NCBI GenBank assembly: GCA_964640185.1
Contig: CAZXGF010000010.1
Location: 64,162 to 128,161 of the forward strand
Direction of reading: 5' to 3'
DNA: 64,000 nucleotides
DNA from: an uncultured Verrucomicrobiota bacterium
GTDB lineage: Bacteria > Auribacterota > JABMQX01
Shown: piece after piece, positions 7,916 through 30,775 of the stretch
Position numbering within the stretch: position 1 is the stretch's first letter
Layout of the letters: each line of letters begins with the position of its first letter
The notes under the pieces: generated by a model
What the model saw: the letters and a program-made list of their open reading frames with translations, nothing else
Database searches by the model: none
What the model was told of the DNA's origin: nothing
Position numbers and translations under genes: made by a program

Positions 7916-7925
7916 GAAAGACTCC

Positions 7926-9719: not shown

Positions 9720-9746
9720 TCCCTTTTTCCGATTCCCTAATGGTTT

Positions 9747-10130: not shown

Positions 10131-10141
10131 CCCTTGTTCCC

Positions 10142-12300: not shown

Positions 12301-12307
12301 AGATGGG

Positions 12308-12598
12308 TTGCGTCCTGTTCTGACAGCGGCGAGAGAGGTACTGGCACAGGCGTCCAGAAGAGGCTTCTGCGAGCCTTGCAGGGAAAGCTGGGATATCCGC
12401 ATTTGTTCTCGTGGTTTCGGATGGACGCCCTCGGGACAGCGGAGACCAGAGCACCACATTCATCGGCCGCCGGTAATGGAGGACCGCCTGCCTCTGAGTT
12501 CGGGGGGTAAAGGCGCTGGACATGTAGTGCTTTTTGATACGCCACGTTCGGCTTCGAAACCGGCAGGTTCGGTTTTTCGCCACGTCATGCCCGCATGA
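12308..12598 (+). pseudogene. IS630-family transposase C-terminal fragment (opposite orientation)
   Basis: The plus-strand ORF ends ...HVVLFDTPRSASKPAGSVF, resembling the conserved IS630 C-terminal HFTPTSASWLNQVERWF block. The rest is degraded. Confidence 0.35.
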
Positions 12599-13058: not shown

Positions 13059-14015
13059 ATGGCCAACATGAAGGCAGCAATAATAGGAGCCGGGAATGTC
13101 GGTGCGTCCACGGCGCTGAAACTCGCCGAGCTGAATATCGCTGATATCGTAATGACCGACCTCGTCGAGGGCATGCCTCAGGGGAAGGCGTTAGACATGA
13201 TGGAGTCGGCGCCGCTGTCGGGGATAGACGTCAGTATAACCGGCACGAACGATTACAAAGAGATTGCCGGCAGCGATATTGTGGTGATAACGGCTGGCGT
13301 CCCTCGCAAGCCGGGGATGTCGCGCGATGACCTGCTCAAGATAAACGCGCATATCATTGGTGAGGTGGTTGACGATGTGCTCCGGCACGCGCCGGATGCC
13401 ATTATAATAATGGTTACAAACCCGCTGGATGTGATGACCTACCTCGCCTACCAAAGAAGCGGCTTCGACAAGAGGCGCGTTCTGGGGATGGCTGGTGTGC
13501 TCGATTCGGTGAGGTTTCGCTGTTTCATAGCTATGGAACTTGGTGTGTCGGTGAAAGAGGTCTCAGCTATGGTTCTTGGAGGGCACGGAGATTCCATGGT
13601 CCCCCTACCAGATTACTCGACGGTTTCGGGGATTCCGATTGTGGAGCTTATCCCGAAGGAAGCCATTGACCGCATGATCTCCCGCACGCGGAAAGCCGGC
13701 GGTGAGATCGTAGCTTTGCTCAAGACAGGAAGCGCGTACTACGCCCCGGCGGCGGCCGTAGCCGCGATGGCGGAGAGCATTCTCCTGGATCAAAAGCAGC
13801 TCCTCCCATGCTGCACCAAGCTCGACGGAGAATACGGATTGTCCCACGTCTTCGTCGGCGTGCCGGTGATTTTGGGGAAGGAAGGGGTCGAGAAAGTTGT
13901 CGAGGTACCCCTTTCCCCGGAAGACTCTGAGAAGCTGAAGCAATCGGCCGAACACGTGAAGTCCACAATGGAGGATTTGCGTAAGCTTTCTGATACGGAC
14001 AGAGCCGAAGGCTGA
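13059..14015 (+). CDS. mdh: malate dehydrogenase (LDH-like family)
   Basis: Start trimmed to ATG at 13059, preceded by the GAGAAGGAGAAA RBS. It has the Rossmann motif AIIGAGNVGASTA, the catalytic region and substrate-binding ITAGVPRKPGMSRDDLL. Confidence 0.9.
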   Translation: MANMKAAIIGAGNVGASTALKLAELNIADIVMTDLVEGMPQGKALDMMESAPLSGIDVSITGTNDYKEIAGSDIVVITAGVPRKPGMSRDDLLKINAHIIGEVVDDVLRHAPDAIIIMVTNPLDVMTYLAYQRSGFDKRRVLGMAGVLDSVRFRCFIAMELGVSVKEVSAMVLGGHGDSMVPLPDYSTVSGIPIVELIPKEAIDRMISRTRKAGGEIVALLKTGSAYYAPAAAVAAMAESILLDQKQLLPCCTKLDGEYGLSHVFVGVPVILGKEGVEKVVEVPLSPEDSEKLKQSAEHVKSTMEDLRKLSDTDRAEG

Positions 14016-14076
14016 ATTGTTGGCTATGAGTTCTGAGGGATATCGCCATACGATGCCAATGTGAGGGAGTGCTCAG

Positions 14077-15246
14077 TTGAATATCTATGAGTACCAGGCG
14101 AAAGAAATACTGAGAAAGCATGGCGTTCAAGTTCCGAGAGGCAGAGTTGCCTCTGACTCCCTGGGGGCGGAACACGTTGCCAGAGAGATTGGCGGCGTCG
14201 CATGGGTAGTCAAAGCGCAGATCCTGGCTGGCGGACGGGGCAAAGCCGGTGGGGTAAGAATTGCGAGATCCTTCGATGAGGTTAAGGAGCACACCAAGAA
14301 GATTCTTGGCGCTCCTCTCAAGACGCATCAAACGGGCGGTTCGGCTAAGAAAGTGGACAAGGTATTGGTTGAGGAATGGTGCGAAATCGCCCACGAGCTG
14401 TATCTTGCCATTACTATCGATCGCCTCCAGTCAAGAATTGTTGTCGTAGCGAGTTCGGAAGGAGGCGTGGAAATTGAGGAGATTGCGAAGAATAACCCTT
14501 CCGCAATTTTTAGAGAATATATTGACTCCACTACAGGCATGATGCCTTTCCAGGCCAGAAGTCTCGCCTTCAGACTTGGCATCCGGGACAAGGATGTAGC
14601 ACGGCGCGCCGTAAAAGCCATGATGAGCATCCACGACCTCTTTGTTCAATACGACTGCGCTCTTGTTGAAATAAATCCTCTGGTCGTGACCAGACAGGCT
14701 GAGATTGTGGCTTTGGATGCCAAGCTCAGTTTTGACGATAGCGCACTTTCGCGCCACCCGGAAGTTGCTGAACTTAGGGATCTGAAAGGAGAGCTGCCAG
14801 CGGAGAGAATTGCACGTGAGAATAACTTGAACTACATAGCCTTAGACGGCAGCATTGGGTGCATGGTAAATGGCGCAGGCTTGGCTATGGCTACCATGGA
14901 TACCATAAAGGTCTATGGAGGGACACCTGCGAACTTCCTCGACGTTGGTGGGGGTGCTTCTGCGGAGATGATCTCTAAAGCTTTCAGCATCTTGATGAGC
15001 GACGAGAAGGTCAAAGTGATTCTCGTCAATATTTTCGGGGGTATCTTAAAATGTGACGTACTGGCTGAGGGAATTGTCACTGCCTGCCGGGAAGTAAAAC
15101 CGCGTGTCCCCATGATAGTCAGACTGGAAGGAACTAATGTCGAGCAAGGGCGGGCGATTCTGAACGCGTCCGCACTGAATATCAGCTCCGAACCGGATAT
15201 GAAGGCCGCGGCGCAAAGAGCAGTGGAGCTGGCCTATAGGAGTTGA
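14077..15246 (+). CDS. sucC: succinyl-CoA synthetase beta subunit
   Basis: MNIYEYQAKEILRKHGV... ATP-grasp N-terminus. Typical SucC length (389 aa). Confidence 0.9.
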   Translation: MNIYEYQAKEILRKHGVQVPRGRVASDSLGAEHVAREIGGVAWVVKAQILAGGRGKAGGVRIARSFDEVKEHTKKILGAPLKTHQTGGSAKKVDKVLVEEWCEIAHELYLAITIDRLQSRIVVVASSEGGVEIEEIAKNNPSAIFREYIDSTTGMMPFQARSLAFRLGIRDKDVARRAVKAMMSIHDLFVQYDCALVEINPLVVTRQAEIVALDAKLSFDDSALSRHPEVAELRDLKGELPAERIARENNLNYIALDGSIGCMVNGAGLAMATMDTIKVYGGTPANFLDVGGGASAEMISKAFSILMSDEKVKVILVNIFGGILKCDVLAEGIVTACREVKPRVPMIVRLEGTNVEQGRAILNASALNISSEPDMKAAAQRAVELAYRS

Positions 15247-15266
15247 CTATTAAGGAATAGCTACTC

Positions 15267-16154
15267 ATGTCCATACTTGTTGATGAGCGCACCCGAGTCA
15301 TTTGCCAGGGAATAACGGGCCATAGCGGCTCCTTTCACACGCGGCAATGCCTGGATTACGGAACAAAGGTTGTCGCTGGCGTGACACCCGGGAAAGGCGG
15401 AAGAAAGGTTGATGGTGTTCCTGTATTTGATACTGTTTTCGAAGCCAAGGAAGAAACGGGCGCGAACGCCTCCATGATCCTCGTACCGGCGCTGTTCGCT
15501 GCCGATGCAATCCTGGAAGCGGCGGCGGCGGCACTTGAGCTGGTAGTCTGCATCACCGAAGGAATCCCTACGCTGGACATGATCAGGGTCATGCAGGTTC
15601 TCCAAGGGACGAAGACCCGGTTGATTGGTCCTAACTGTCCGGGGATCATCAGCCCGGGCAAATGCAAGATCGGAATTATGGCGGGGCCCATTCATAAGCC
15701 CGGCCGCGTGGGGATCATTTCTCGCAGCGGAACCCTGACCTACGAGATCGCCTATCTACTTACGAGAAGGAACGTGGGGCAATCCACCTGTGTTGGCATA
15801 GGCGGAGACCAGATAACCGGGACAAGCTTCATCGATCTTCTGAAACTGTTTGAAGACGATCCCGAGACTGGCGCTCTGGTCATTATAGGAGAGATCGGCG
15901 GCACGATGGAGGAAAAGGCCGCTGCGTTCATAAAAAGCGATGTAACCAAACCGGTCGTGGGCTACATAGCTGGGGTAACCGCCCCGCCCGGAAAACGCAT
16001 GGGCCATGCTGGCGCCATCATTTCAGGAGGACACGGAGGAGCCAAAGAGAAGATAGAAGCCTTAGCTTCAGCCGGAGTCGCAATGGCAAAGACGCCTCCT
16101 GAGGTCCACGATTGGCTGGCATCCATCGCGCCGAACGTTGTAAGTGCTTCTTGA
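15267..16154 (+). CDS. sucD: succinyl-CoA synthetase alpha subunit
   Basis: [15 protein letters not shown] phosphohistidine-loop region, CoA-binding N-terminus, 295 aa. Confidence 0.9.
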
Positions 16155-16179
16155 AAACGCTAAGGATTAGTTTAAGAAA

Positions 16180-16590
16180 ATGGAAGTCTCCGTTAAAACG
16201 GTCCGCAGTCCATTCGTTAAGAAAGTGGCTGAAATAAGCGGCCAGAACCTTGGCGCTTGTTATCAATGCGGGAAATGTTCCGCAGGTTGCCCGTCCGCGG
16301 ACCGGATGGACAACGTACCAAGTCAGTTTATCAAACTGATTCAACTGGGAATGGAAGATGAAGTAAGGAAGTCGAATACGCCCTGGGTCTGCCTGACGTG
16401 CTTTGTTTGTACGGTCCGGTGTCCTAAGGGAATTGATATCGCCTCCATAATGGAAGCAGCGAGGCTGGTTCAGTCAAGGGATAGGGATAATGTGGACCAT
16501 TTTGAGGTTAGGTCTTTGGGTGCTACGTTAGACGAAAAGCTTCCCCCTATTGCGGTAGTAAGCTGTTTTAGGAAGCATACGGCAGGTTAG
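16180..16590 (+). CDS. hdrC: heterodisulfide reductase subunit C-like (2x[4Fe-4S])
   Basis: CYQCGKCSAGCP and CLTCFVCTVRCP motifs in a 136-aa protein, immediately upstream of the CCG-domain gene. Confidence 0.75.
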   Translation: MEVSVKTVRSPFVKKVAEISGQNLGACYQCGKCSAGCPSADRMDNVPSQFIKLIQLGMEDEVRKSNTPWVCLTCFVCTVRCPKGIDIASIMEAARLVQSRDRDNVDHFEVRSLGATLDEKLPPIAVVSCFRKHTAG

Positions 16591-16600
16591 CGAGTAAACG

Positions 16601-17506
16601 ATGAAGATATCATATTATCCTGGTTGTACACTTAAATCACACGCGAAGAACTTTGAGGATTCCGCCATCGCTTCCATGGCAGAATTAGGCATCGAGTTGG
16701 AAGAACTCCCCAGATGGAACTGCTGCGGGACAGTTTTCTCTTTAGCATCTGACGATTTAATGCGCCACCTCGCCCCTATCAGGATTCTTCTTCGCACCAG
16801 GGAACAAGGTAGCGATTCTCTCGTTACTCTTTGTGCTATGTGCTATCATACATTAAAGCTGAGCAACTTAAGGGTAAAGGAGAATCCTGATGAATTAGAA
16901 AAGTTAAATAACATGATGTATAAGGAGGAGATTACTTATGATGGAAAGGCCTCAGTATATCACCTCTTGACTCTCCTTAAAGAAGAGGTTGGGTTCCAAA
17001 CCGTAAGGGAACGAATAACGGTTGACCTGGGTGATCTAAAAGTTGCCCCGTATTATGGATGTCTCCTTTTACGTCCGCAGGAGGTGAGTATCGACCCCAA
17101 TATGGAGAGTCCCACCATTATGTCAGAGTTCATCGAGGCGCTGGGGGCAGTCCCAGTTGAGTTCCCGCATCAGACCGAATGTTGCGGGGCATATCTTACT
17201 GTTTGTGAAAGAGACCTCGTCGCGGAACGCTCTCATGAAATATTGGAATCGGCCAGGAGGGCGGGTGCTGACATCATTTTAACCTCCTGCCCGCTTTGTC
17301 AATTCAATCTTGATGACAGGCAAAAGGAAATAAAAAAGAAATATCCTGAGTTCGAAGAGATTCCAGTTTTGTACTTTACCCAGCTTTTGGCGTTGGCGAT
17401 GGGGCTTGATGAAGCAGCCTTGAGGTTTGATTTGAATTGGGTTGATCCCCTCACCATATTAGAAAATAAACATGTTTCAGCCGCTAAAGAGGCCGGTAGC
17501 AAGTGA
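16601..17506 (+). CDS. hdrB: heterodisulfide reductase subunit B-like (two CCG Cys-rich domains)
   Basis: YYPGCTL...NCCG and a second YYGCLLLRP...ECCG...CPLCQFNL block, as in HdrB/GlpC/SdhE-type CCG proteins. Confidence 0.8.
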   Translation: MKISYYPGCTLKSHAKNFEDSAIASMAELGIELEELPRWNCCGTVFSLASDDLMRHLAPIRILLRTREQGSDSLVTLCAMCYHTLKLSNLRVKENPDELEKLNNMMYKEEITYDGKASVYHLLTLLKEEVGFQTVRERITVDLGDLKVAPYYGCLLLRPQEVSIDPNMESPTIMSEFIEALGAVPVEFPHQTECCGAYLTVCERDLVAERSHEILESARRAGADIILTSCPLCQFNLDDRQKEIKKKYPEFEEIPVLYFTQLLALAMGLDEAALRFDLNWVDPLTILENKHVSAAKEAGSK

Positions 17507-17599
17507 ATATAGAGAACCGTGTAGGTGTTTTAGATGAATTGGTTTAGCGGCTAACCCCATGTTCACTTTGAGGGCAAAAGCTATCTTCTGAAATAGAGA

Positions 17600-17646
17600 A
17601 AAGTTGAAAAAGATAAACTATAATTAGTCGGTGCGGAGGGTGACTT
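17600..17646 (+). promoter_or_regulatory. AT-rich gap with a sigma70-like TATAAT box and a GGAGGG RBS upstream of korA (candidate internal promoter)
   Basis: It is the only AT-rich, about 140-nt non-coding gap inside the 13-30 kb gene train. TTGAAA lies 9 nt upstream of TATAAT, a suboptimal spacing. Confidence 0.2.
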
Positions 17647-18852
17647 GTGGAAGTCCGTAGTAGAGGTATAAGAAAATCAATTGTAAGTGAGCCGCACTAT
17701 AAAGATAACACATCTATTTTAACTGGTGAACATTTCTGGCAGGGTGATATCGCCATTGCCGAGGGAGCTATAGCCGCAGGTAGTAGATTTTTTGCTGGAT
17801 ACCCTATTACTCCAGCATCGGAGATTGCAGAAAGAATGTCATTAAGACTCCCGCCTATAGGGGGAGTATATATCCAGATGGAAGATGAGCTTGCATCCAT
17901 GGCTGCCATTTTGGGGGGCTCCTGGAGTGGAGTCAAATCCATGACGGCGACCAGTGGGCCCGGTGTCTCGCTAATGCTTGAGAATTTTGGCCTGGGAATC
18001 ATGACGGAGACGCCGTGCGTGATCGTGAACGTGCAGAGAGGTTCGCCGTCCACGGGCTTGCCCACATTTTTTGGTCAGGCGGATATGATGCAGGCGAGAT
18101 GGGGTACACATGGAGATTATGAGGTTATTGCCTTAGCGCCGGATTCGCCCCAGGAATGCTTCGACCTTACTATAAAAGCCTTCAATTTGTCCGAGAAATA
18201 TAGATTGCCTGTGTTCATTCTTGCTGATGGTCTTGTCGGTCATATGACGGAAAAAGTTGTCGTCCCTGAAGCTGAAGAGATTGAAGTGTTTGACCGCCGG
18301 AAAACACAGAAACCTCCCGGTCAATATCTGCCTTATGAAGCCGAAGACGATCTCGTCCCGCAAATGGCCAATTTCGGCGAAGGGTACAGACTCCATACAA
18401 CAGGTCTTACCCATGACGAAAGAGGGTATCCCGATATGACCATCGAGGCGCAGGATAAACTAATTCGACGTCTCGTAAATAAAATTCGCCACAATGCCGA
18501 TGACATTATCATGGTCGAGGAAAAAGACCTGGAGGGTGCTGAAGTCGTCGTTGTTTCTTACGGAGTTACCTCCCGCGTGGTACCGCCTGCTGTCGAGCGA
18601 GCAAAAGGCGAAGGGATAAAGGTAGGGCAGTTCAGATTATTGACAGTTTGGCCCTTTCCCGACAAAAGGATTGCCCAGATTGCAGAGAAAGTAAAGGCAT
18701 GGGTCGTACCTGAAATAAACTTGGGACAGATAGTAAGAGAGGTCGAAAGAGCGGTTGGTAGGGTCTCAAAAGTAATCCCCGTTTCTCATGCGGGCGGGGA
18801 TGTTCATGACCCTGACGATATCTATACGGTTATCAAAGAGGCGATTCAGTGA
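17647..18852 (+). CDS. korA: 2-oxoglutarate/2-oxoacid:ferredoxin oxidoreductase alpha subunit (four-subunit type)
   Basis: GTG start after a GGAGGG RBS. IAEGAIAAGSRFFAGYPITPASEI and the transketolase-like C-terminal domain are present. Confidence 0.8.
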   Translation: MEVRSRGIRKSIVSEPHYKDNTSILTGEHFWQGDIAIAEGAIAAGSRFFAGYPITPASEIAERMSLRLPPIGGVYIQMEDELASMAAILGGSWSGVKSMTATSGPGVSLMLENFGLGIMTETPCVIVNVQRGSPSTGLPTFFGQADMMQARWGTHGDYEVIALAPDSPQECFDLTIKAFNLSEKYRLPVFILADGLVGHMTEKVVVPEAEEIEVFDRRKTQKPPGQYLPYEAEDDLVPQMANFGEGYRLHTTGLTHDERGYPDMTIEAQDKLIRRLVNKIRHNADDIIMVEEKDLEGAEVVVVSYGVTSRVVPPAVERAKGEGIKVGQFRLLTVWPFPDKRIAQIAEKVKAWVVPEINLGQIVREVERAVGRVSKVIPVSHAGGDVHDPDDIYTVIKEAIQ

Positions 18853-19676
18853 ATCAGATGCCAGAACATCCTCTTGAGCGTTGTCTGAGGATGGACAGGA
18901 TGCCGCATATATGGTGCTCCGGATGCGGTATCGGAACCGCTGTAGCCTGCTTTCTGAAGGCGTTGGATGAGACAGGCATCGACCCTGATAAGGTAGTTGT
19001 GGTTTCAGGAATAGGCTGTACCGGCAGAGTGGCGGGATATGTGAAGTTCGATTCTTTCCATACCACACATGGCAGGGCCATTCCTTTTGCCACAGGGGTC
19101 AAATTGGCAAACCCTGACCTTACAGTCATCGTCTTCTCTGGCGATGGCGATTTGTTTGCCATCGGAGGTAACCATTTTATTCATGCAGCAAGGCGGAACG
19201 TTGACATAAAAGTATTTTGCATAAACAACTTTATATACGGTATGACAGGAGGGCAGGCGGCGCCTACCACGCCTTTGGGAGCGAGGACTTCCACCTCACC
19301 ATACGGGTGTTTTGAACCACCCTTCAATCTTCCCTACTTAGCAGAATCGTGCGGTGCAGTATATGTTGCAAGGTGGACACCCCTTCATATAAGAAGGCTG
19401 ACCCATGCAATGGCGGAGGCGATAAGTAAGCGAGGATTTTCATTCATCGAGATTGTCTCGCCTTGTCCCACCGTGTACTCCCGGTACAATCGCCTGGGGG
19501 ACGGCCTGGCTATGATTAAATACTACCGCGAAAACAGCCGCATAGAGAATTGGGCTAATACCAAGGATGTTCCCCTTTCAATGAACAAGGAGATAGTGGT
19601 CGGGAAGTTTGTGGATATTGACAAACCGACATTCCTCGATTATCAGGGGGCGCAAATTGAGCAGAACAAAGAATAG
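18849..19676 (+). CDS. korB: 2-oxoacid:ferredoxin oxidoreductase beta subunit (TPP-binding)
   Basis: CSGCGIGT, the GDG...N TPP motif (SGDGDLFAIGGNHF), and a 4-nt overlap with korA. Confidence 0.85.
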   Translation: MNQMPEHPLERCLRMDRMPHIWCSGCGIGTAVACFLKALDETGIDPDKVVVVSGIGCTGRVAGYVKFDSFHTTHGRAIPFATGVKLANPDLTVIVFSGDGDLFAIGGNHFIHAARRNVDIKVFCINNFIYGMTGGQAAPTTPLGARTSTSPYGCFEPPFNLPYLAESCGAVYVARWTPLHIRRLTHAMAEAISKRGFSFIEIVSPCPTVYSRYNRLGDGLAMIKYYRENSRIENWANTKDVPLSMNKEIVVGKFVDIDKPTFLDYQGAQIEQNKE

Positions 19677-20214
19677 ATACAATATAAAGATTTCTGGTTT
19701 TGGTGGCCAGGGCATTATATTGAGTGGCTATGTAATTGGGAAGGCCGCATCTCTATACGACCATAAAGATGCGGCATTTACCCAGAGTTATGGCCCTGAA
19801 GCAAGAGGTGGGGCTTGTAGCGCAACCGTGGTCATAGAAAACGGAAGAATCGGCTATCCGCTGGTGAGAATGGCTGATTTTCTTATCGTCTTATCGAAGG
19901 AAGGTTATGAAAAATACGCTGCCAAGGTAGCCCCCGATTCTTTGACCTTTGTTGATGGCGACCTTGTGAAAGAAGCGCATGTGGACAACAAGAAGGTATT
20001 CGGAATCCCCGCGACACGCTTCGCTGAATCTATGGGTAAAAAGATTGTTGCCAATGTCATCATGCTTGGATTCTTTTCCGGTATAACCAATATTATCTCC
20101 AAACAGGCTATGGTGCAGAGTATTAAAACTTCTGTGAAAAAGGCTTTCGTTGAGATTAATCTAAAAGCTTTCGAAAGAGGCTACGAATATGCCAGTGAAA
20201 TCAGCGGAGAGTAA
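19657..20214 (+). CDS. 2-oxoacid:ferredoxin oxidoreductase gamma subunit
   Basis: Start trimmed to a TTG preceded by a [25 protein letters not shown] signature. Confidence 0.75.
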
Positions 20215-20479
20215 ACTTAAGGAATACAAGCCCAGGGTATTTAAGGGAACCGTCTATATAATCAAGGAGCAGTGTAAGGGATGTGGATTCTGCATCGAGT
20301 ACTGCCCTAAACAGATACTCGAGCCTTCTGAAGAGTTCAATGAGAAAGGCTATCACTACCCGGTCGTCGTTGACGAAGAGGGATGTGTAAACTGTAAGGT
20401 CTGCGAAGACATCTGTCCGGACTTTGCGATCTTCTCTCTCCCCAAAGAAGAAAATGGCAAACACGGGGGTTGTGGTTGA
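20189..20479 (+). CDS. 2-oxoacid:ferredoxin oxidoreductase delta subunit (2x[4Fe-4S] ferredoxin)
   Basis: [12 protein letters not shown] and [12 protein letters not shown] motifs. It overlaps both the gamma-subunit stop and the hdrA start. Confidence 0.7.
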
Positions 20480-22455
20480 AAAAAATCGGCGTATTCATCT
20501 GCCATTGTGGCGGTAATATCTCCAACGTTGTTGACGTGGAGGCCGTAGCGGAGGCTGTAGGAAAGGTTCCGGAAGTTGCGTTTTCAACCACGTACGACTA
20601 TATGTGCTCGGCCCCGGGACAGGATTTGATAAAAGAAAAGGCATCCGAACATGGCCTGGATGCTTACATTGTCGCCGCATGTTCCCACAACCTCCACGAA
20701 TCAACTTTTCGTGGGTTGGCAAAAGAAATCGGCATCAATCCATACCAGGTGGAAATAGCAAACATTAGAGAACATGATTCATGGGTACATGACGACCCCC
20801 AGAAAGCCACGGAAAAGGCCATTCTCATTATCAAAAGCGTAGTAGAGAAGATAAGGTTGAATGAGGACCTTTGGCCCATCCAGGTGCCCGTCACTAAAAA
20901 GGTCCTCATTATTGGCGCGGGCATTGCTGGCATTCAAGCAGCTCTCGATATAGGTAATGCAGGATACAAAGTTACCCTGGTAGAGAGGCGGGCATCTATT
21001 GGAGGGCACATGGCCCAGCTCTCCAAAACGTTTCCCACTCTGGATTGTTCTCAATGTATCATGACTCCTCGGATGGTCGAGGTAGCGAACCATAAGAACA
21101 TAGAATTATTGACCTACAGCGAGGTCGAAGACGTTTCCGGTTACGTTGGCAATTTCCGGGTAAAAATAAAGAAGAAACCAACGTACGTTGACCCCGAGAA
21201 ATGCAACATGTGTAATAAGTGTGCCGAGGTATGTCCTGTAGAGGTAGATAGTGCGCATGATGAAGGTATTATAAAAAGGAAAGCTATTTACATACCATTT
21301 CCTCAGGCAATACCTGCCACCTATACATTAGATATAGATGCTTGTTTGGGGCTTCTGCCTATTGCCTGCGGTGAGTGTGTCAAGGTTTGTGAACCCAAAG
21401 CCATCGATTATGACATGCAGCCGCAATTTGTTGAAGATGAGTTCGGCGCAATCATAGTAGCCACGGGGTACGAACTGTATCCCATCTTGAATTTGCAGGA
21501 ATACGGAGCGGGGCGAATACCCGATGTTATTAACGGCATGCAGTTTGAGAGACTGGTCTATCTGAACGCAACAACGGGTTGTGGAGTAAGAAGACCGTCA
21601 GATGGGAGGGTTCCTAAAGATGTTGTGTTCGTTCAGTGTGCTGGATCTCGCGATCCTGAGATGCATAATGCATACTGTTCGAGGGTCTGTTGCATGTATA
21701 CATCCAAGCATGCGATGTTATATAGAAGCGCTGTCCCTGACGGTCAGGTTTACGTCTTTTACATTGATATACGTTCCAATGGCAAAGATTATGAGGAGTT
21801 CGTTCAAAGAGTTAGGGAAGATCAGGGTGTTACCTACTTAAGGGGAAAGGTGTCAAAGATTTTCCAGGAAGATGGCAAGGTTGTAGTTTGGGGAGCAGAT
21901 ACGTTGACGGGGAAGAAAGTAGACATTAAAACAGACCTTGTGGTTCTTGCTACAACTATGGTTCCTTCTCCAGGGATTAGAGAACTGGCAACAAAGCTGA
22001 AGTTGAATGTAGATGAATATGGATTCGCCCAGGAAGCCCATCCCAAGCTAAGGCCTGTGGAAAGCCTTTCGGCGGGGATATTCATGGCAGGCTGTGTTCA
22101 GAGCCCCCGGGATATACCAGATACTGTATCGCATTCTTCAGCCGCAGCAAGTAAGGTTATGGGTCTCATTGCGAGTGATATTCTGGAGAGAGACCCAATC
22201 ATTGCTAAAGTTGATGAAGACCTGTGTAGCGGATGCAAGACGTGCATTTCCGTCTGCGCGTATGACGCCAGGGAGTTTAACGCAGCGAAGAACGTTGTAG
22301 AAGTCAATGCAGCGAGATGTGAGGCATGTGGTTCCTGCGTTGTGGCTTGTCCAAGCGGCGCCACTCAGCAACTCAACTTTGCGGATTCGCAGATAACCGC
22401 CATGCTGAAGGCGATCTTGTCCGAGGACGAACATGAACGTCAAGCACGATTTTGA
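20470..22455 (+). CDS. hdrA: heterodisulfide reductase subunit A (FAD, electron-bifurcating flavoprotein)
   Basis: N-terminal [16 protein letters not shown] site [45 protein letters not shown], an inserted ferredoxin and a C-terminal CxxCxxCxxxCP pair. Canonical 661-aa length. Confidence 0.9.
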
Positions 22456-22852
22456 GCCGAAGATCGTGAGTTTTCTCTGCAAGTGGTGCAGCTCGGCTGC
22501 TGCAGACCTTGCGGGGGTCACGCGGCTGAAATATCAACCGAACGCCGTGACCATCCGGGTGATGTGTTCGTCGCGGGTGGACCCCGTTCACGTTCTCCAG
22601 GCGTTCCGACACGGCGCGGACGGCGTTTTCGTGGGAGGATGTCACCCCGGGGAGTGCCATTACCAGGTCGGAAATTATCAGACAAGAAGAAGGGTCATCC
22701 TGTTACATGAGCTGCTGAGCGGAATGGGAATTTCGCCGGCCAGGCTGAGACTGGAGTGGATTTCAGCCGCAGAAGGGGCCAAGTTTAGAAACACGATGAA
22801 CGACTTCATTGATTCGGTGAGAGCTCTTGGTCCCCTGGCGCTACAGCGTTAG
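22433..22852 (+). CDS. mvhD: MvhD (methyl-viologen-reducing hydrogenase delta subunit)
   Basis: VSFLCKWCSSAAADLAG...MCSS...GGCHPGECHY. It overlaps the hdrA 3' end by 23 nt. Confidence 0.85.
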   Translation: MNVKHDFEPKIVSFLCKWCSSAAADLAGVTRLKYQPNAVTIRVMCSSRVDPVHVLQAFRHGADGVFVGGCHPGECHYQVGNYQTRRRVILLHELLSGMGISPARLRLEWISAAEGAKFRNTMNDFIDSVRALGPLALQR

Positions 22853-22959
22853 CGCTGGATCCTTAAGGAGAAATGGCGAGAAAAGTTGAGGTCATACTTC
22901 CAAACTTTTGACCTTCGTGTTGGGTATTGCGATTGCCCGTGAGATGGTGAGGACCAAAC

Positions 22960-23670: not shown

Positions 23671-23685
23671 AGGAGAGACGAGGCT

Positions 23686-25353: not shown

Positions 25354-25375
25354 CTTAAAAAAGTAGGTTGGAGCG

Positions 25376-26368
25376 ATGGGCAAGCCGAAATTTGCGTTCT
25401 ATTGGTGCGCCTCTTGTGGCGGTTGTGAAGAGGCAATAATTGATCTTGGAGAAGATTTACTCAAAGTGACCGCCGCTGTGGACATTGTCTTATGGCCGGT
25501 CGCCCTGGATTTCAAGCGGAAGGACGTCGAAGCATTCGAGGACGGAGAGATTGATGTCAGCTTCATTAACGGGGCTGTGCGGACGGAAGAACAGGAGGAG
25601 ATGGTCAATCTTCTCAGGCAAAAATCGCAGCTCGTGTTCGCGTTTGGCTCGTGCGCCCACATCGGTGGAATTCCCGGCCTTGCCAATCTCTGGAACAAAG
25701 AATCGATCTTTGAGCGCGTGTATAAAACCGTACCCACAGTCAACAATCCGGATAACGTCTATCCGAAAACGACAACGGACATCAATGGGAACGAACTCAC
25801 TCTACCGGAGTTTTATGATACAGTGCGCACTCTGGATCAGGTGATAGACGTTGACTACTACATTCCGGGCTGTGCCCCTCCACCTGATCTCATCATGAAT
25901 GCCTTCACCGCCATCTTAGAAGGGAAACTTCCTGCGAAGGGGAGTGTGCTGGCGCCTGAGAAAAGCCTTTGTGATACATGTCCCAGAGCGAAGAGCAAGC
26001 CGGAAAAGCTCGCCATCAAAGAGATACGGAGAGTCCACCAGGTTGCTCCCGACCCCGAGAAGTGTTTTTTGGAACAGGGCATTATATGTCTGGGCCCGGT
26101 AACGAGGTCGGGATGTGGAGAAAGGTGCATAAATGCAAACATGCCCTGCCGGGGTTGCTTCGGACCTACGAGGGAAGTGGCCGACCAAGGCGCTAAGATG
26201 CTGAGCGTGATTGCCGCCTGCTTTGGAATTGAGAATGAGGACAAGATCTCCGATGAAGAAGTAAAGGCGATCGTGAATCAGGTGGACGATCCGGTTGGCG
26301 TTTTCTACATGTACAGCCTTGCCGCCTCCGTTCTCCGAAGAAGGCAAATGGAGCAGATAAAAGAGTAA
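25376..26368 (+). CDS. mvhG: [NiFe]-hydrogenase small subunit, MvhG-like (second copy)
   Basis: YWCASCGGCEE, GSCAHIGG, and a C-terminal CxxC...CRGCFGP distal-cluster region. Confidence 0.85.
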   Translation: MGKPKFAFYWCASCGGCEEAIIDLGEDLLKVTAAVDIVLWPVALDFKRKDVEAFEDGEIDVSFINGAVRTEEQEEMVNLLRQKSQLVFAFGSCAHIGGIPGLANLWNKESIFERVYKTVPTVNNPDNVYPKTTTDINGNELTLPEFYDTVRTLDQVIDVDYYIPGCAPPPDLIMNAFTAILEGKLPAKGSVLAPEKSLCDTCPRAKSKPEKLAIKEIRRVHQVAPDPEKCFLEQGIICLGPVTRSGCGERCINANMPCRGCFGPTREVADQGAKMLSVIAACFGIENEDKISDEEVKAIVNQVDDPVGVFYMYSLAASVLRRRQMEQIKE

Positions 26369-27859
26369 TTGGCGGAAAAGGACGACGTTAGCATGTCTAA
26401 AAGATTGACAATAGACCCCATAACACGACTCGAAGGACACGGCAAAATCGAGATCTTTCTGGATAGTCGCGGCAACGTCAGTCACGCTTATTTCCAGGTT
26501 CCGGAACTTCGTGGATTCGAGAAGTTCTGCGAGGGACGGCTCGCCGAGGAAATGCCCCGGATCACTCCCAAGATATGCGGCGTGTGCCCCACAGCGCACC
26601 ACATGGCTTCCGGAAAAGCCCTGGACGATCTGTTCGAGGTCAACCCTCCACCGGCAGCAAAGAAGATTCGGGAGCTTGTCAATTCGGCGTTCATTGCGGA
26701 GGATCACGCGCTCCATTTCTTCTTTCTGGGGGGGCCCGACTTCATTGTGGGCCCTCGGGCACCGGCGAGCGAGAGAAACATATTGGGTGTGATTGAAAAA
26801 GTTGGGCTCGACGCCGGCAAGCAGGTCATACACATCCGCAAACGGCTGCGTGATTTGATTGCGAAACAGGGGGGGAGAGTCATTCATCCAGTCTGTAACC
26901 TGCCGGGTGGGGTTTCCAAGGGTGTCAGCAAGGAGGACAGGGAGGAGTACATTCAAACGGGAAAGGAAGCCGTAGAATTCGCGCGATTTGCGCTGAAGAC
27001 CTTTGAGGATATTGTCGTTCAGAACAAGGAATATCTCGATCTTATCACCGGCGATATCTACCGCCACAGGACCTACTACATGGGGCTTGTGGATGAAAAC
27101 AACAAGGTCAACTTCTACGACGGTGAAATCAGGGTAGTTGACCCGGATGGGAAAGAGTTCGCGAAATTCAGTCCGAGAGAGTACCTGGACAACATCGAGG
27201 AACATATAGAGCCGTGGAGCTATGTGAAGTTTCCGTATCTCAAACACGTAGGGTGGAAGGGTTTTGTTGATGGCAAAGATAGCGGGGTGTATCGGGTTGC
27301 CCCGTTGGCCAGACTCAACGCGTCGGATGGAATGGCCACTCCGCTTGCCCAGGAAGAGTGTGAGAAGATGTATAGCACATTGGGTGGCAAGCCATCTCAT
27401 AATACACTTGCCAATCATTGGGCAAGGCTTATAGAGCTTCTCTACGCCTCGGAACGGCTCCTTGAGCTTGCCCAGGACGAGGAAATACTCGATCCCCACG
27501 TTCTAAACATTCCTTCGGCCGTGCCCGAGGAAGGGATCGGAGTTGTGGAGGCGCCGAGAGGCACACTCTACCATCACTACAAGACAGATGAGAAAGGAAT
27601 CCTCACCCACGTAAATCTCATCGTTGCCACAGTAAACAACGCGGCTGCGATATCTATGTCTATCGAGAAAGCAGCGAGAAGCCTGATCAAGAAAGGTAAG
27701 GCGGACGACGCGTTACTCAACATGGTGGAGATGGCTTTCAGGGCTTATGACCCTTGTCTTGCCTGTGCAACACATGCTATAGCAGGGGGTCCAGCGTTAG
27801 AAATTACGCTGTATGACAGTAAGGGAGAGCCGATAGACTCAATGGTCAATTTCGAGTGA
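26369..27859 (+). CDS. mvhA: [NiFe]-hydrogenase large subunit, MvhA-like (group 3c)
   Basis: N-terminal RLEGHG (L1 motif with CGVC just after) and C-terminal DPCLACATHA (L2 Ni-Fe ligands). 496 aa. Confidence 0.9.
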   Translation: MAEKDDVSMSKRLTIDPITRLEGHGKIEIFLDSRGNVSHAYFQVPELRGFEKFCEGRLAEEMPRITPKICGVCPTAHHMASGKALDDLFEVNPPPAAKKIRELVNSAFIAEDHALHFFFLGGPDFIVGPRAPASERNILGVIEKVGLDAGKQVIHIRKRLRDLIAKQGGRVIHPVCNLPGGVSKGVSKEDREEYIQTGKEAVEFARFALKTFEDIVVQNKEYLDLITGDIYRHRTYYMGLVDENNKVNFYDGEIRVVDPDGKEFAKFSPREYLDNIEEHIEPWSYVKFPYLKHVGWKGFVDGKDSGVYRVAPLARLNASDGMATPLAQEECEKMYSTLGGKPSHNTLANHWARLIELLYASERLLELAQDEEILDPHVLNIPSAVPEEGIGVVEAPRGTLYHHYKTDEKGILTHVNLIVATVNNAAAISMSIEKAARSLIKKGKADDALLNMVEMAFRAYDPCLACATHAIAGGPALEITLYDSKGEPIDSMVNFE

Positions 27860-28335
27860 TTCTTGTGAAACAAAAGGGCCGCACAGTTGTCGTGGGGATT
27901 GGGAATCCGATTCGCGGAGACGATGGTGTCGCAATCCGCCTGGTGCGCAAATTGAGAGAAGTGCTGCCCCCAAGGTTTGAGGTGAAGGAATCGGCCACGG
28001 CGGGCTTGGAATTGATGGAGACCATCCTGGGCTATCGCAGGGCAATCCTCATAGATGCTATACGAACTCCCGAAGGTGTGCCAGGTGAAGTTTACCGTTT
28101 TGATTGGCAGGACTCGAAGGTCGCCCCCTATCTACCTTTCTCTCACACGATCAATCTGGGGCAGGTTGTGGAGATGGGAGGGATGTTGGGGGGGCAAGAG
28201 ATGCCTGCCGTGGAAGTTCTGGCAGTTGAGGCGAAAAGACTTGATGCCTTCTGCGAGGACTTAAGCCCGGAATTGGAAGAGAAGCTTGACGAGATTGCCG
28301 CGGAACTTAGAACCGCAATCCAAGAGATAGATTGA
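27856..28335 (+). CDS. hydrogenase maturation endopeptidase (HycI/HyaD/FrhD family)
   Basis: VVGIGNPIRGDDGVAIRLV...D/H metal-binding pattern, a 4-nt overlap with mvhA, 159 aa. Confidence 0.8.
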   Translation: MILVKQKGRTVVVGIGNPIRGDDGVAIRLVRKLREVLPPRFEVKESATAGLELMETILGYRRAILIDAIRTPEGVPGEVYRFDWQDSKVAPYLPFSHTINLGQVVEMGGMLGGQEMPAVEVLAVEAKRLDAFCEDLSPELEEKLDEIAAELRTAIQEID

Positions 28336-28338
28336 AAC

Positions 28339-29445
28339 ATGACGAAGAGGGTTTACGTTGCAGCTACGAGACAGAATGACGGAAAGACCGTAGTCTCGAT
28401 AGGGCTTTTGAGGGCTTTTCTAAAAAGATATAATAAGGTGGGTTATATCAAGCCAGTCGGCCAGCAGTTTCGTATCGTGGACGGCGAGCAAGTAGATAAA
28501 GATGCGATCTTGATGAAGTCGATCTATGGGCTTGAGGAGAATTTAAGAGACATGAGTCCCATCGCCGTGCCGAGGGGATTCACAGAGAACTACATTCTCC
28601 ATGGGAACGCGCAGGCGCTCCGAAGAAAAGTCCTCGAAGCCTATGACAGAATAGCTAAGGACAAAGAGATAGTTGTTGTCGAGGGCACAGGACACGCAGG
28701 AGTCGGCTCTACCTTCGATATGTCAAACGCGGACGTGGCCCATCTTCTCGGTGCGCAAGTGATTTTGGTGACCTGTGGTGGAATTGGACGGCCAATCGAC
28801 GAGATAATGCTGAACAAGCCAACCTTCGATACCCGGGCTGTGAAGATACTGGGAGTGATTATCAATAAAGTCCTTCGTAAGAAATACAACAAGATCGATA
28901 CTTTTGTCAGAAGAGGATTGGAGAAGAAAAACATCGAAGTCTTGGGTGTGGTTCCGTTCGATCAGGTTCTTTCCAGTCCAACAGTCTCCGATCTTCTTGA
29001 AGATATCGGAGGAACGCTGCTGTATGGAAAAGGGCACCTGGATAATTCCGTAACCAAAATTGTAGTGGGCGCCATGCCTCCTCACGAGGCGCTGAACTAT
29101 TTTGGGCCCGGCACGCTGCTCATTACGCCTGGTAATAGAGAAGACAACATGCTGGCGGCAATTGGGGGTTGCCTTGCCGCTATCACGAAGACGCAGTGTG
29201 TGTCAGGGATTGTGGCGACATGTGGGTTCATTCCTCATAAGAGCGTACTGAAACTCATGGAGCGGGTTCCGATCCCGTTGATAGCCATCAAAGACGATAC
29301 TTATACGGCCGCCTCCAAGATCAATAGTCTCATAACTAAGATAAGGCCGAACGACACAAAGAAGATCACCGCGACAGAGCGCTTGATACAGAAATACGTG
29401 GATATAGATAGACTACTCTCTCTAATCCAGAATAGTGCTAATTAG
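28339..29445 (+). CDS. stand-alone phosphotransacetylase-N-terminal-like protein (AAA_26/CobQ-type P-loop fold plus DRTGG domain)
   Basis: VYVAATRQNDGKTVVSIGLLRAF (degenerate P-loop) and a C-terminal DRTGG-like block GTLLITPGNREDNMLAAIGG...IPLIAIKDDTYTAASKI. It lacks the Pta catalytic domain. Confidence 0.6.
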   Translation: MTKRVYVAATRQNDGKTVVSIGLLRAFLKRYNKVGYIKPVGQQFRIVDGEQVDKDAILMKSIYGLEENLRDMSPIAVPRGFTENYILHGNAQALRRKVLEAYDRIAKDKEIVVVEGTGHAGVGSTFDMSNADVAHLLGAQVILVTCGGIGRPIDEIMLNKPTFDTRAVKILGVIINKVLRKKYNKIDTFVRRGLEKKNIEVLGVVPFDQVLSSPTVSDLLEDIGGTLLYGKGHLDNSVTKIVVGAMPPHEALNYFGPGTLLITPGNREDNMLAAIGGCLAAITKTQCVSGIVATCGFIPHKSVLKLMERVPIPLIAIKDDTYTAASKINSLITKIRPNDTKKITATERLIQKYVDIDRLLSLIQNSAN

Positions 29446-29560
29446 TCCTCCATGTATGAGAGTTTCAGGGGACTTAGCAAACATGGATTATGGTAGTAAC
29501 GAGCCTGACGGCTGAGCGCCGCAGCGGTTTTTCACGATAAGTGTAGGGAAGCGGAAGAGT

Positions 29561-30775
29561 ATGGCAAACCGCGACGACGGTTTGAGAAAGGAGGGTTTGG
29601 ATATGGCGCAACCAAAATTTGTGGGCAAAGTGGAGTGGCCCGTCACGGTGCAGCTCGGAAAAGGGCTTGAAGGGGCGATCACGGGAGAATCGGCGATCGG
29701 CTACGTGGACGGCCAGAAGGGGTGGTTGGTCTATCGCGGATACAACATTTTCGACCTGGCCGAGCATTCCAGCTATGAGGAGACAGCTTACCTCTTGCTC
29801 TTCGGGAAGCTCCCCAAACAAGAAGAGCTGGACAAATTCAAGCAGAAGCTGATGGGGTATCGTGCCGTTCCGGGGTCAGTGTTTGACACGCTGAAATCTC
29901 TCCCCAGAGAGACCCATCCCATGGCGGCGTTGAGGACAGGAGTTTCGGTCCTGGGATGCCTTGATCCGAACGCTGACAAATGCGCCATCGAGAGCGAGAC
30001 GGAGATTTCGATCAAGCTGATTTCTCAGACCGCGACGATAGCCGCTGCCGTGGCCAGAACTCGGAAAGGTCTGGAACCTGTTGACCCTGACCCCAGCCTC
30101 GATCACACCGCCAATTATCTTCTGATGACCACCGGGGAAAAGCCGGATGAGTTGATGGCCAAGGTAATGGACGTGGCACTCATTCTGCACGCCGACCACG
30201 GCATGAACGCCTCGACATTCACCACGATGGTCATCCACTCCTCCCTTTCCGACATGTACTCTGCGATTGTAGGAGGGATCTGCAGCTTGAAGGGGCCGCT
30301 CCATGGTGGAGCCAATGAACGGGCTCTGGCAGACCTGCTGAAGTTGAACGACGAGGAGGACGCCGCGAGGTACGTCAAAGAGTGCATCGCCCAGAAGAAG
30401 AAGATTATGGGCTTCGGGCACCGCGTCTATAAGGCTTACGATCCCAGGGCCAAAATCCTCGGCAAGTACTCGCAGGATGTAAGCGAAAAGAAGGGGATGG
30501 GGCGCCTTTATCGCATCGCCAAAAGGGTCGAGGATGAGGTCATTGCAGCTTACGGAGAAAAGGGCATATTCCCGAACGTGGATTTCTATTCGGGCACAAT
30601 CTACTACGCGTTCGGCATAGAGCCAGCGATGTTCACGCCGATTTTTGCGGTCAGCAGGGTTGCCGGATGGTGCGCCCGTGTGCTCGAGTACATGCCTGTG
30701 AACAGGATTTTCCGTCCGCGAGCGGAATATGTGGGAGCGCTGGAGACGGAATACGTGCCTATTGACCAAAGGTAA
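29561..30775 (+). CDS. gltA: citrate synthase
   Basis: GLEGAITGESAIGYVDGQKGWLVYRGYNIFDLA, the catalytic His/Asp regions (GFGHRVYKAYDPRA), 404 aa. Confidence 0.85.
   Translation: MANRDDGLRKEGLDMAQPKFVGKVEWPVTVQLGKGLEGAITGESAIGYVDGQKGWLVYRGYNIFDLAEHSSYEETAYLLLFGKLPKQEELDKFKQKLMGYRAVPGSVFDTLKSLPRETHPMAALRTGVSVLGCLDPNADKCAIESETEISIKLISQTATIAAAVARTRKGLEPVDPDPSLDHTANYLLMTTGEKPDELMAKVMDVALILHADHGMNASTFTTMVIHSSLSDMYSAIVGGICSLKGPLHGGANERALADLLKLNDEEDAARYVKECIAQKKKIMGFGHRVYKAYDPRAKILGKYSQDVSEKKGMGRLYRIAKRVEDEVIAAYGEKGIFPNVDFYSGTIYYAFGIEPAMFTPIFAVSRVAGWCARVLEYMPVNRIFRPRAEYVGALETEYVPIDQR

Follow-up and report, generated by a model that had tools for sequence, protein, structure and literature searches.

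Gene clusters that combine a 2-oxoglutarate:ferredoxin oxidoreductase (OGOR, the product of kor genes), a fumarate reductase of the TfrAB type and heterodisulfide reductase (Hdr) genes have been reported from several bacterial lineages. Here, we describe a cluster of this kind at positions 13059-30775, plus strand, of a 64,000-nucleotide (nt) stretch of DNA (the window). In tubeworm symbionts and Thioflavicoccus mobilis, korABCD and tfrAB are interspersed with flxABCD-hdrABC, and direct bifurcation of electrons from reduced nicotinamide adenine dinucleotide (NADH) to fumarate reductase and OGOR was proposed (Rubin-Blum 2019). In Endoriftia, the genes show operon-like co-expression, with KorABCD between HdrA and HdrBC (Mitchell 2024), and a case of an Hdr-Flx/TfrAB/KorABCD cluster has also been reported from Bipolaricaulia (bioRxiv 2023.11.26.568696). 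In Ca. Celaenobacter (Cloacimonadota), thiol:fumarate reductase (TFR), OGOR, fumarase, succinyl-CoA synthetase, a group 3c Mvh hydrogenase and Hdr lie in one cluster, which was read as an H2-driven reductive tricarboxylic acid (rTCA) system (Williams et al. 2021). For the "succinate operon" of the cultured succinate producer Pseudoclostridium thermosuccinogenes, a fumarate reductase linked to a bifurcating Flx-Hdr was proposed (Koendjbiharie and van Kranenburg 2019 preprint; PMC7282089). According to a 2026 survey, electrons from NADH would go to fumarate and ferredoxin at the same time, and the five-subunit soluble NADH-fumarate reductase of Hydrogenobacter thermophilus (Miura et al. 2008, as summarised there) is the only biochemically characterised soluble multi-subunit one in the rTCA cycle (PMC13147460).

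An earlier note on this DNA had taken the gene arrangement to be undescribed, but it was already present in Rubin-Blum 2019, Williams 2021, Koendjbiharie 2020, Mitchell 2024 and the 2026 survey. In the window, an orthologous flavoprotein pair occurs together with hdrABC-mvhD, kor and a donor module, which makes the locus one of the published Hdr-(Flx or Mvh)/TfrAB/KorABCD kind. Both the architecture and the hypothesis have been in print since 2019, and the window represents a further uncultivated lineage of a known, biochemically unproven kind. The reading that we favour, and regard as moderately probable, is that the locus encodes a soluble module in which H2-driven electron bifurcation to fumarate and ferredoxin would feed 2-oxoglutarate synthesis, in a reductive dicarboxylate branch running from oxaloacetate through malate, fumarate, succinate and succinyl-CoA to 2-oxoglutarate.

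The cluster comprises 18 genes in the order mdh-sucC-sucD-hdrC-hdrB-korA-korB-korG-korD-hdrA-mvhD-FeS-flavoprotein-mvhG-mvhA-protease-ptaN-citrate synthase. The open reading frame (ORF) listing, together with Pfam and NCBIfam profile searches, bore out the gene list, strand and positions given in the earlier note for all 18 (Table 1). Mdh, SucC, SucD, KorA, the hydrogenase protease and citrate synthase score above curated NCBIfam cutoffs. The Hdr and Mvh proteins, KorB, KorG, KorD and the flavoprotein give strong NCBIfam matches and, because all of these fall below the equivalog cutoffs, are by profile score relatives of the named methanogen enzymes rather than equivalog-level members. A sequence motif check found the cofactor motifs intact throughout the cluster. 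The earlier note had seen no membrane anchor, and in line with this no transmembrane segment or other membrane-helix-type hydrophobic stretch is predicted in any of the 18 proteins, and the N-terminus of MvhG carries neither a twin-arginine motif nor a Tat signal. On the strength of these predictions, the whole system is soluble and cytoplasmic.

The association of these genes extends well beyond the window. In a scan of one genome per species, relatives of the flavoprotein were found in at least 599 species genomes; the 555-aa family is tightly conserved, its metagenome matches being 67-87% identical, with names including Omnitrophota and Aminicenantes. The best 80 loci, searched by tblastn with the window proteins and three Flx-like proteins from locus L006, come from Aminicenantes, Cloacimonadota, Gallionella/Nitrosomonadales, Alphaproteobacteria, Sumerlaeota/BRC1, Neomarinimicrobiota, Armatimonadota, a "Planctomycetia" metagenome-assembled genome (MAG) and the Escarpia laminata endosymbiont (L056). 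The Fe-S gene adjoins the flavoprotein gene in 75 of the 80. Among the 34 loci with at least 8 kb on both sides of the flavoprotein gene, 30 hold at least one hdr or mvhD gene, 23 hold hdrA together with mvhD, 21 hold korAB, 17 a Flx-type (NADH) module and four mvhGA.

The synteny search suggested in the earlier note recovered the order hdrCB-kor-hdrA-mvhD-FeS-Fp-mvhGA (Fp, flavoprotein) in an Omnitrophota chromosome (CP070807.1) and in the "Planctomycetia" MAG (L007), as in the window. Other loci show permutations: kor-hdrCB-hdrA-mvhD-FeS-Fp-mvhGA in L039 and L057, mvhGA-hdrCB-hdrA-mvhD-FeS-Fp in L055 and L080, FeS-Fp-hdrCB-kor-hdrA-mvhD-flx in proteobacteria including L056, and hdrCB-kor-hdrA-mvhD-flx-FeS-Fp in most Aminicenantes. 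The insertion of kor between hdrCB and hdrA recurs in several phyla. Since the linkage is kept across phyla despite permuted order and an exchangeable donor module, these comparisons strongly support a functional link, under selection, between hdr/mvh, the flavoprotein/Fe-S pair and kor, much as the earlier note had supposed. HdrABC-MvhD and the flavoprotein pair form a core that stays constant across the loci compared; Kor is usual, and the donor (Flx for NADH or MvhGA for H2) is exchangeable. Six proteobacterial MAG loci (L059, L060, L063, L069, L070 and L072), several of them labelled Alphaproteobacteria or Rhodomicrobiaceae, carry the flavoprotein pair followed by an hdrC-like gene only. 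No hdrA, hdrB or kor lies within 10 kb of the pair in these six, and the 259-aa ORF that follows hdrC in the alphaproteobacterial L059 is not an HdrB homologue. In L077, the pair sits beside a malic enzyme gene and mobile elements.

The flavoprotein is the candidate site of fumarate reduction. Its best NCBIfam match is TfrA (PRK06263; 345 bits against a cutoff of 718, over model positions 6-412 of 546), and the SdhA/FrdA model TIGR01812 gives 276 bits (cutoff 567). Residues 92-506 align with SdhA/FrdA and NadB structures. The substrate-site residues H326, T342/E343, R346, H440 and R472/R474 are complete, the motifs QYHPTG, LVTEKVRGAGG, PTLHYQNGG and HGRNRLMGNS matching Escherichia coli SdhA H242, T254/E255, R286, H354 and R399, and all of them are invariant across the 12 family members aligned (A1). 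Asn133, also invariant in A1, takes the place of SdhA His45, to which flavin adenine dinucleotide (FAD) is covalently bound. In the SdhA/FrdA family, enzymes with non-covalent FAD reduce fumarate and oxidise succinate very poorly. Because the covalent-FAD His is replaced by an invariant Asn and the fumarate-site residues are complete, the protein fits, as far as its sequence can tell, fumarate reduction rather than succinate oxidation.

At its ends, the flavoprotein departs from the known families. Residues 1-96 (23686-23970) form a conserved N-terminal extension without a family match, the Succ_DH_flav_C domain (PF02910) gave no match in the protein, and a short tail (residues 507-555, 25204-25353) replaces the usual SdhA/FrdA/NadB C-terminal domain. 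Extension and tail could serve as a docking surface for Hdr. An AlphaFold2 (AF2) model built from the 12-sequence alignment, with a mean predicted local distance difference test score (pLDDT) of 52, was too poor to interpret the N-terminal extension or the missing C-terminal domain.

The Fe-S subunit has 12 invariant Cys in its family alignment (A2), which correspond to one [2Fe-2S] and two [4Fe-4S] motifs; its listed homologues are 192-264 aa long. A profile search detected no CCG domain in the 236-aa protein, and the TfrB model gives 29 bits. The missing CCG domain excludes the canonical thiol:fumarate reductase mechanism in cis and favours direct electron delivery from Hdr. Thiol dependence of the enzyme also appears unlikely, since the B subunit has no counterpart of the CCG half of TfrB. 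This half is the defining feature of TfrB, so the published name TfrAB, judged on these profiles, applies by virtue of the A subunit alone, and thiol:fumarate reductase misfits the B subunit.

The components needed for H2 oxidation and bifurcation are recognisable as well. HdrA aligns full length with methanogen structures (8rvu_a, 674 bits; 5odc_A, 647 bits), scores 771 bits on the HdrA2 model (equivalog cutoff 1100), and carries a GxGxxG FAD motif at residue 149 together with 28 Cys, among them those of the inserted and the C-terminal ferredoxin motifs. The HdrB-like protein reaches 190 bits on HdrB TIGR03288 and 149 bits on SdhE, both below cutoff, and 53 bits on TfrB model positions 262-485. 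It aligns full length to the solved methanogen HdrB 9sfi_C and keeps 10 of 10 CCG-motif Cys (C9, C41C42, C78xxC81; C154, C194C195, C230xxC233). The top NCBIfam match of the HdrC-like protein, which has two CxxCxxCxxxC motifs, is HdrC (TIGR03290; 72 bits, below cutoff). MvhD finds its best curated match in VhuD. MvhA shows the NiFe-ligand motifs CGVC and DPCLACATH and a 27-aa C-terminal tail for proteolytic maturation, which fits the adjacent maturation protease. By their best model matches (VhuA, VhuG and VhuD), MvhAG would be a cytoplasmic, group-3c-like hydrogenase.

Kor consists of four separate subunits, with a beta subunit that binds thiamine pyrophosphate (TPP) and a 2x[4Fe-4S] delta subunit (profile and motif check). 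The best-matching specific models for alpha, beta and delta are those of OGOR. KorABGD would act on 2-oxoglutarate, an assignment to which the adjacency of sucCD, and that only, points.

We infer that these proteins would form a complex working as follows. H2 would be oxidised by the Mvh-type [NiFe] hydrogenase MvhAG, and the electrons would pass through MvhD to the FAD of HdrA, at which flavin the pair would be bifurcated. The high-potential electron would travel through HdrC and, probably, the two Fe-S clusters of HdrB to the [2Fe-2S]/2x[4Fe-4S] subunit, and from there to the non-covalent FAD of the TfrA-like flavoprotein, where fumarate would be converted to succinate. The low-potential electron would exit HdrA by way of its ferredoxin domains and pass to ferredoxin, or straight to KorD, and such electrons would power the reductive carboxylation of succinyl-CoA by KorABGD. 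In this stoichiometry, each fumarate reduced provides both of the low-potential electrons required to carboxylate its own succinyl-CoA, a 1:1 match that would give a reason for kor being embedded in the cluster.

The energetics are favourable. At textbook potentials of -414 mV for H2, about +30 mV for fumarate/succinate and about -500 mV for ferredoxin, our own arithmetic gives about -86 kJ per electron pair from H2 to fumarate and about +17 kJ from H2 to ferredoxin. The coupled reaction is strongly exergonic, and favourable even at low H2. In methanogens, Tfr, Mvh-Hdr and Kor work in the reductive branch that leads to 2-oxoglutarate; by analogy, the proposed circuit would mirror the methanogen one minus the coenzyme M/coenzyme B (CoM/CoB) shuttle. 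A bolder form of the proposal, which we consider speculative and rather unlikely, is a single soluble megacomplex of Mvh, Hdr, Kor and the fumarate reductase pair. It would channel both electrons into two steps of one pathway, from fumarate to succinate and from succinyl-CoA to 2-oxoglutarate, without a diffusible ferredoxin or thiol, and HdrB would have its non-cubane clusters repurposed as a relay to the Fe-S subunit. If true, the HdrC-HdrB interface known from heterodisulfide reductase and the SdhB-CCG interface known from type E succinate dehydrogenase would be united in it.

Several observations weigh against bifurcation from H2 to fumarate and ferredoxin as the function of this locus. 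Our literature search found no biochemical, structural or transcript evidence for the window genes or any homologue, and in Endoriftia tfrAB was not expressed in step with the other cluster genes (Mitchell 2024). HdrB keeps every ligand of a disulfide-reducing site, which would be needless for a pure electron wire, and the flavoprotein pair occurs without hdrA in L059-type loci, L076 and L077. Kor falls below the 2-oxoglutarate-specific cutoffs in alpha (396 bits, cutoff 579), beta (251, cutoff 364) and delta (79, cutoff 125). Fumarase is missing from the window; neither it nor ATP-citrate lyase, aconitase or isocitrate dehydrogenase is among the scanned genes of the 64 kb. The earlier note had called the flavoprotein and its partner SdhAB-like, and although the former has the complete fumarate site described above, the SdhB label fits the latter poorly. 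SdhB models give 31 bits (TIGR00384; SdhB cutoffs 88-228), and the family profile matches solved SdhB chains weakly (E ~2e-3). A moderate AF2 model (pLDDT 69.5, predicted template modelling score [pTM] 0.41) returned from a Foldseek search of the PDB only NuoG/HydA-type [2Fe-2S] proteins, at a template modelling (TM) score of about 0.23, and no SdhB match. By these comparisons, likeness to SdhB is weakly supported and not demonstrable.

The complete ligand set of HdrB keeps alive the main alternative, in which fumarate is reduced indirectly: Mvh-HdrABC would reduce ferredoxin and, at HdrB, a disulfide, and the resulting thiol would donate electrons to fumarate reduction. The disulfide would be a low-molecular-weight thiol pair or a DsrC/TusA-like protein, in a bacterial counterpart of methanogen Hdr plus Tfr. 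Both CCG motifs are complete, HdrB aligns over its full length with the methanogen protein, and Rubin-Blum 2019 and Mitchell 2024 both list a thiol option. L006, an Aminicenantes-type locus labelled Clostridiales, has TusA- and DsrE-like genes directly downstream of the flavoprotein gene, on the opposite strand (11786-12518); their products are possible carriers of sulfur or disulfide. Such a shuttle is weakened by the lack of a second CCG protein to re-oxidise the thiol: the Fe-S partner has no CCG domain across the family, and the single HdrB of the cluster leaves no separate thiol-oxidising site. In addition, ORF and profile searches found no thiol-carrier gene in the window cluster, and CoM and CoB are not known in bacteria of this kind. 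We consider a thiol shuttle unlikely, though it deserves to be kept in view. It is also improbable, in our estimate, that the proteins form a non-bifurcating H2:fumarate oxidoreductase for redox balancing or succinate fermentation, with Hdr as mere wiring and Kor co-regulated but drawing its ferredoxin from elsewhere. The drop from H2 to fumarate suffices without coupling, and eight of the 12 MvhGA-bearing loci (L032, L055, L075, L080, L085, L050, L051 and L061) have Mvh, Hdr and/or the flavoprotein pair but lack kor in the available DNA, several of them on short contigs. Yet HdrA is full length, scores 674 bits to the bifurcating methanogen enzyme and keeps both ferredoxin domains, several phyla have kor inserted between hdrCB and hdrA, and the roughly 86 kJ per pair would be wasted, which is unlikely in energy-limited anaerobes.

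We give little credence to the module running in reverse, as a confurcating system that would combine succinate and Kor-derived reduced ferredoxin to form H2, in syntrophic degradation of propionate or amino acids. Succinate oxidation is the known energetic bottleneck of syntrophic propionate oxidation. The flavoprotein family is common in Aminicenantes and Cloacimonadota, the latter being discussed in the literature as syntrophic propionate oxidisers. The invariant Asn in place of the covalent-FAD His speaks against this direction and, by our own arithmetic, the mean donor potential would be barely enough even at very low H2. Equally remote, in our judgement, is a flavoprotein that is not a fumarate reductase, for instance an L-aspartate oxidase or another FAD_binding_2 enzyme, or that lies near the tricarboxylic acid (TCA) cycle genes by accident. 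NadB models score 230-262 bits, only a little below the TfrA and SdhA values, every family cutoff is missed, and the SdhA/NadB C-terminal domain is absent. Nevertheless, the top model match is TfrA, and an Fe-S partner accompanies the protein in 75 of the 80 loci, whereas NadB never needs one. The gene is linked here to sucCD, mdh and kor, in L077 to malic enzyme, and to fumarase in Ca. Celaenobacter (Williams 2021) and P. thermosuccinogenes (PMC7282089). An identity as aspartate oxidase was rejected on the obligate Fe-S partner and the TCA gene context, and chance juxtaposition of the cluster genes on the persistence of their linkage across phyla in permuted order.

The spacing of the genes makes their co-transcription plausible. 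Most intergenic distances are between -26 and +25 nt, but not all keep to the 0-25 nt of the earlier note: the 140-nt AT-rich gap between hdrB and korA is as it had stated, and spacings of 61 nt between mdh and sucC and 107 nt between mvhD and the Fe-S gene had been missed. A spacing of 115 nt separates ptaN from citrate synthase. Scans for consensus promoters and terminators gave counts equal to those of shuffled controls, that is, at chance level; RNA folding in three intergenic gaps was no stronger than in shuffles, and an Rfam search of the window returned zero matches. The features of the cluster are listed in Table 1, where the korG gene call of 185 aa was taken from Joint Genome Institute (JGI) contigs.

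Table 1. Features of the cluster, with window positions and the principal profile evidence
Feature	Position	Strand	Evidence
mdh, NAD-dependent malate dehydrogenase, 318 aa from ATG at 13059	13059..14015	+	TIGR01763
sucC, succinyl-CoA synthetase beta	14077..15246	+	PRK00696 532 bits, above cutoff; starts low-GC3 block
sucD, succinyl-CoA synthetase alpha	15267..16154	+	TIGR01019 about 445-448 bits, above cutoff
hdrC-like, 2x[4Fe-4S], 136 aa	16180..16590	+	Fer4_17/Fer4_8
hdrB-like, two CCG domains, 301 aa	16601..17506	+	PF02754 matched twice
hdrB-korA gap, 140 nt, AT-rich, GC 0.39	17507..17646		
korA, 2-oxoacid:ferredoxin oxidoreductase alpha	17647..18852	+	PRK08659 572 bits, above cutoff
korB, TPP-binding beta subunit	18849..19676	+	TPP_enzyme_C; OGOR beta PRK09628 251 bits
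korG, gamma subunit, 185 aa	19657..20214	+	PF01558; PRK08537 193 bits
korD, delta subunit, 2x[4Fe-4S]	20189..20479	+	OGOR_delta 79 bits; two CxxCxxCxxxC motifs
hdrA, FAD/Fe-S subunit, 661 aa, putative bifurcation site	20470..22455	+	
mvhD, [2Fe-2S] adaptor hydrogenase-HdrA	22433..22852	+	PF02662, E = 3e-51; five Cys
Fe-S subunit, [2Fe-2S] + 2x[4Fe-4S], 236 aa	22960..23670	+	
TfrA-like flavoprotein, putative fumarate reductase catalytic subunit, 555 aa	23686..25353	+	FAD_binding_2, E = 1.7e-75
mvhG, [NiFe]-hydrogenase small subunit	25376..26368	+	best match VhuG 225 bits, below cutoff
mvhA, [NiFe]-hydrogenase large subunit	26369..27859	+	best match VhuA 404 bits, below cutoff
Hydrogenase maturation endopeptidase	27856..28335	+	TIGR00072, 94 bits, above cutoff
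Pta-N-like protein, AAA_26 + DRTGG	28339..29445	+	ends low-GC3 block
Citrate synthase	29561..30775	+	TIGR01800 477 bits, above cutoff; GC3 0.70, host-like

Base composition sets most of the cluster apart from its surroundings. From sucC to ptaN (14077-29445), GC content at third codon positions (GC3) is 0.45-0.61, with mvhD as the exception at 0.67, and in mdh, in citrate synthase and throughout the flanking genes it is 0.58-0.77. Of the named homologous loci, the closest, from Omnitrophota, has 41% GC; the flavoprotein is 78% identical to the copy on the Omnitrophota chromosome, and the cluster genes are closest to that chromosome. Directly downstream of citrate synthase, on the minus strand, lies a gene for a 560-aa DDE_Tnp_1 transposase (31021-32703), which is common to all three JGI contigs with the cluster. 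The low-GC3 block, the 41% GC of the Omnitrophota homologue and the insertion sequence downstream together suggest that the module was acquired horizontally from a lower-GC donor. Horizontal transfer has also been inferred for the gammaproteobacterial clusters (Rubin-Blum 2019).

The genes at the edges of the cluster are conserved with it to different degrees. Mdh (TIGR01763, 462 bits, cutoff 352) has a host-like GC3 of 0.68, and mdh is linked to the module elsewhere in one of the 80 loci. In Omnitrophota locus L004, sucD also adjoins the module, and the Pta-N-like gene has the same position and is 72% identical; the latter is present in none of the 80 related loci. A profile search detected no acetyltransferase domain in the Pta-N-like protein. 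Another DRTGG protein is encoded at 7562-8089, in the hydrogenase cluster upstream, and DRTGG and Pta-N-like proteins may be regulators linked to hydrogenase modules. Citrate synthase, which the earlier note took as a hint of a reversed oxidative TCA (roTCA) cycle, is found in none of the 80 related loci, nor in L004; its nearest named homologues are from Zixibacteria (73-74% identity), and other homologues are 79-88% identical. Since the gene is compositionally native, with host-like codon composition unlike that of the cluster, and is not conserved with the module, it gives the roTCA reading no support and is probably a neighbour outside the conserved module.

Elsewhere in the window, a second, divergently oriented hydrogenase-type cluster occupies 49-11101 on the minus strand. 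It includes a small subunit that resembles VhuG (49-999), whose large-subunit partner presumably lies past the window edge, as well as a NuoF-like protein (7926-9719) and a NuoE-like protein (10142-11101) whose N-terminus matches the FAD-binding start of HdrA. A 1088-aa protein of the same cluster is HoxU/NuoG-like at its N-terminus and continues with HdrA segments, rearranged or duplicated, in the order of HdrA residues 228-553, 5-235 and 324-652. HATPase, PHP, CBS and DRTGG proteins are interspersed, and from its gene content the cluster seems to encode a [NiFe] hydrogenase that contains HdrA and is linked to NAD(H). At 41871-44428, also on the minus strand, lies a second 2-oxoacid:ferredoxin oxidoreductase, of two subunits (fused gamma-alpha, 560 aa; beta, 292 aa). 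Its presence beside the four-subunit Kor parallels the co-existence of dimeric and four-subunit OGOR in tubeworm symbionts. Genes for a flavodiiron-type protein (37470-38678), an Fe/Mn superoxide dismutase (44523-45248), a multihaem cytochrome (47402-48301) and rubrerythrin (50139-50936) are also present and, because of them, the host probably meets oxygen despite its oxygen-sensitive Kor, Hdr and Mvh.

If the favoured reading, bifurcation from H2 to fumarate and ferredoxin, is true, fumarate would join the heterodisulfide, crotonyl-CoA and others as a high-potential acceptor in flavin-based electron bifurcation. With H2 or NADH as the source, a reductive TCA branch would supply itself with low-potential ferredoxin, which would lower the energy cost of 2-oxoglutarate synthesis and of carbon fixation by the rTCA cycle. 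With the family present in at least 599 species, including tubeworm symbionts, Aminicenantes, Cloacimonadota and relatives of Gallionella, the effect on models of the carbon cycle could be wide. The contribution of the window itself is limited to one more lineage with the H2-driven version, and our survey adds that the donor, Flx or MvhGA, is interchangeable around the HdrABC-MvhD-flavoprotein core.

Compared with the methanogen MvhADG-HdrABC complex (5ODC, 8RVU, 9SFI), the window shares all six subunit types and the cluster ligands of HdrB and HdrC. It differs in that its subunits all fall below the NCBIfam equivalog cutoffs, that its host is a bacterium without known CoM-S-S-CoB, and that mvhD is separated from mvhG by the flavoprotein/Fe-S pair, and hdrB from hdrA by kor. 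The Methanothermobacter enzyme TfrAB (Heim et al. 1998, as cited in other papers) is soluble like the window enzyme, and TfrA is the best family match of the flavoprotein; the differences are a window TfrA score below half the cutoff, the unmatched C-terminal third of the model, and the CCG half of TfrB, which in the window is a separate HdrB. With type E succinate:quinone reductases and methylmenaquinol:fumarate reductase, the locus has in common a CCG-domain protein (SdhE) that partners an SdhAB-type pair, and, in the Fe-S subunit, a second [4Fe-4S] motif where classical SdhB has [3Fe-4S]. Those enzymes are membrane-associated and quinone-linked, whereas the partners in the window are HdrA, MvhD and the hydrogenase, with no membrane segment. 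The H. thermophilus fumarate reductase differs in its NADH donor and scattered genes, and no bifurcation is reported for it.

Among the clusters of the same kind, P. thermosuccinogenes, likened here by its published description, also combines fumarate reductase with Flx-Hdr and is proposed to couple succinate formation to ferredoxin reduction, but it uses an NADH donor, has no kor and serves fermentation rather than 2-oxoglutarate synthesis. The tubeworm-symbiont type shares the position of kor between hdrCB and hdrA and the same bifurcation hypothesis, and the Escarpia symbiont proteins (L056) are 63% (flavoprotein), 61-62% (KorA/KorB) and 54% (HdrA) identical to those of the window. Its donor is an NADH-type FlxABC instead of MvhGA, its gene order opens with sdhBA, and such clusters also hold aclAB, acn, idh, pntAB and rnf. 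Ca. Celaenobacter shares with the window the H2-type group 3c Mvh donor together with Hdr, TFR, OGOR and succinyl-CoA synthetase, and the Cloacimonadota loci L050 and L065 have the same flavoprotein family with Mvh/Hdr neighbours. It belongs to another phylum, its cluster includes fumarase, and its authors assumed a heterodisulfide intermediate; the window cluster, for its part, is flanked by mdh, the Pta-N-like gene and citrate synthase.

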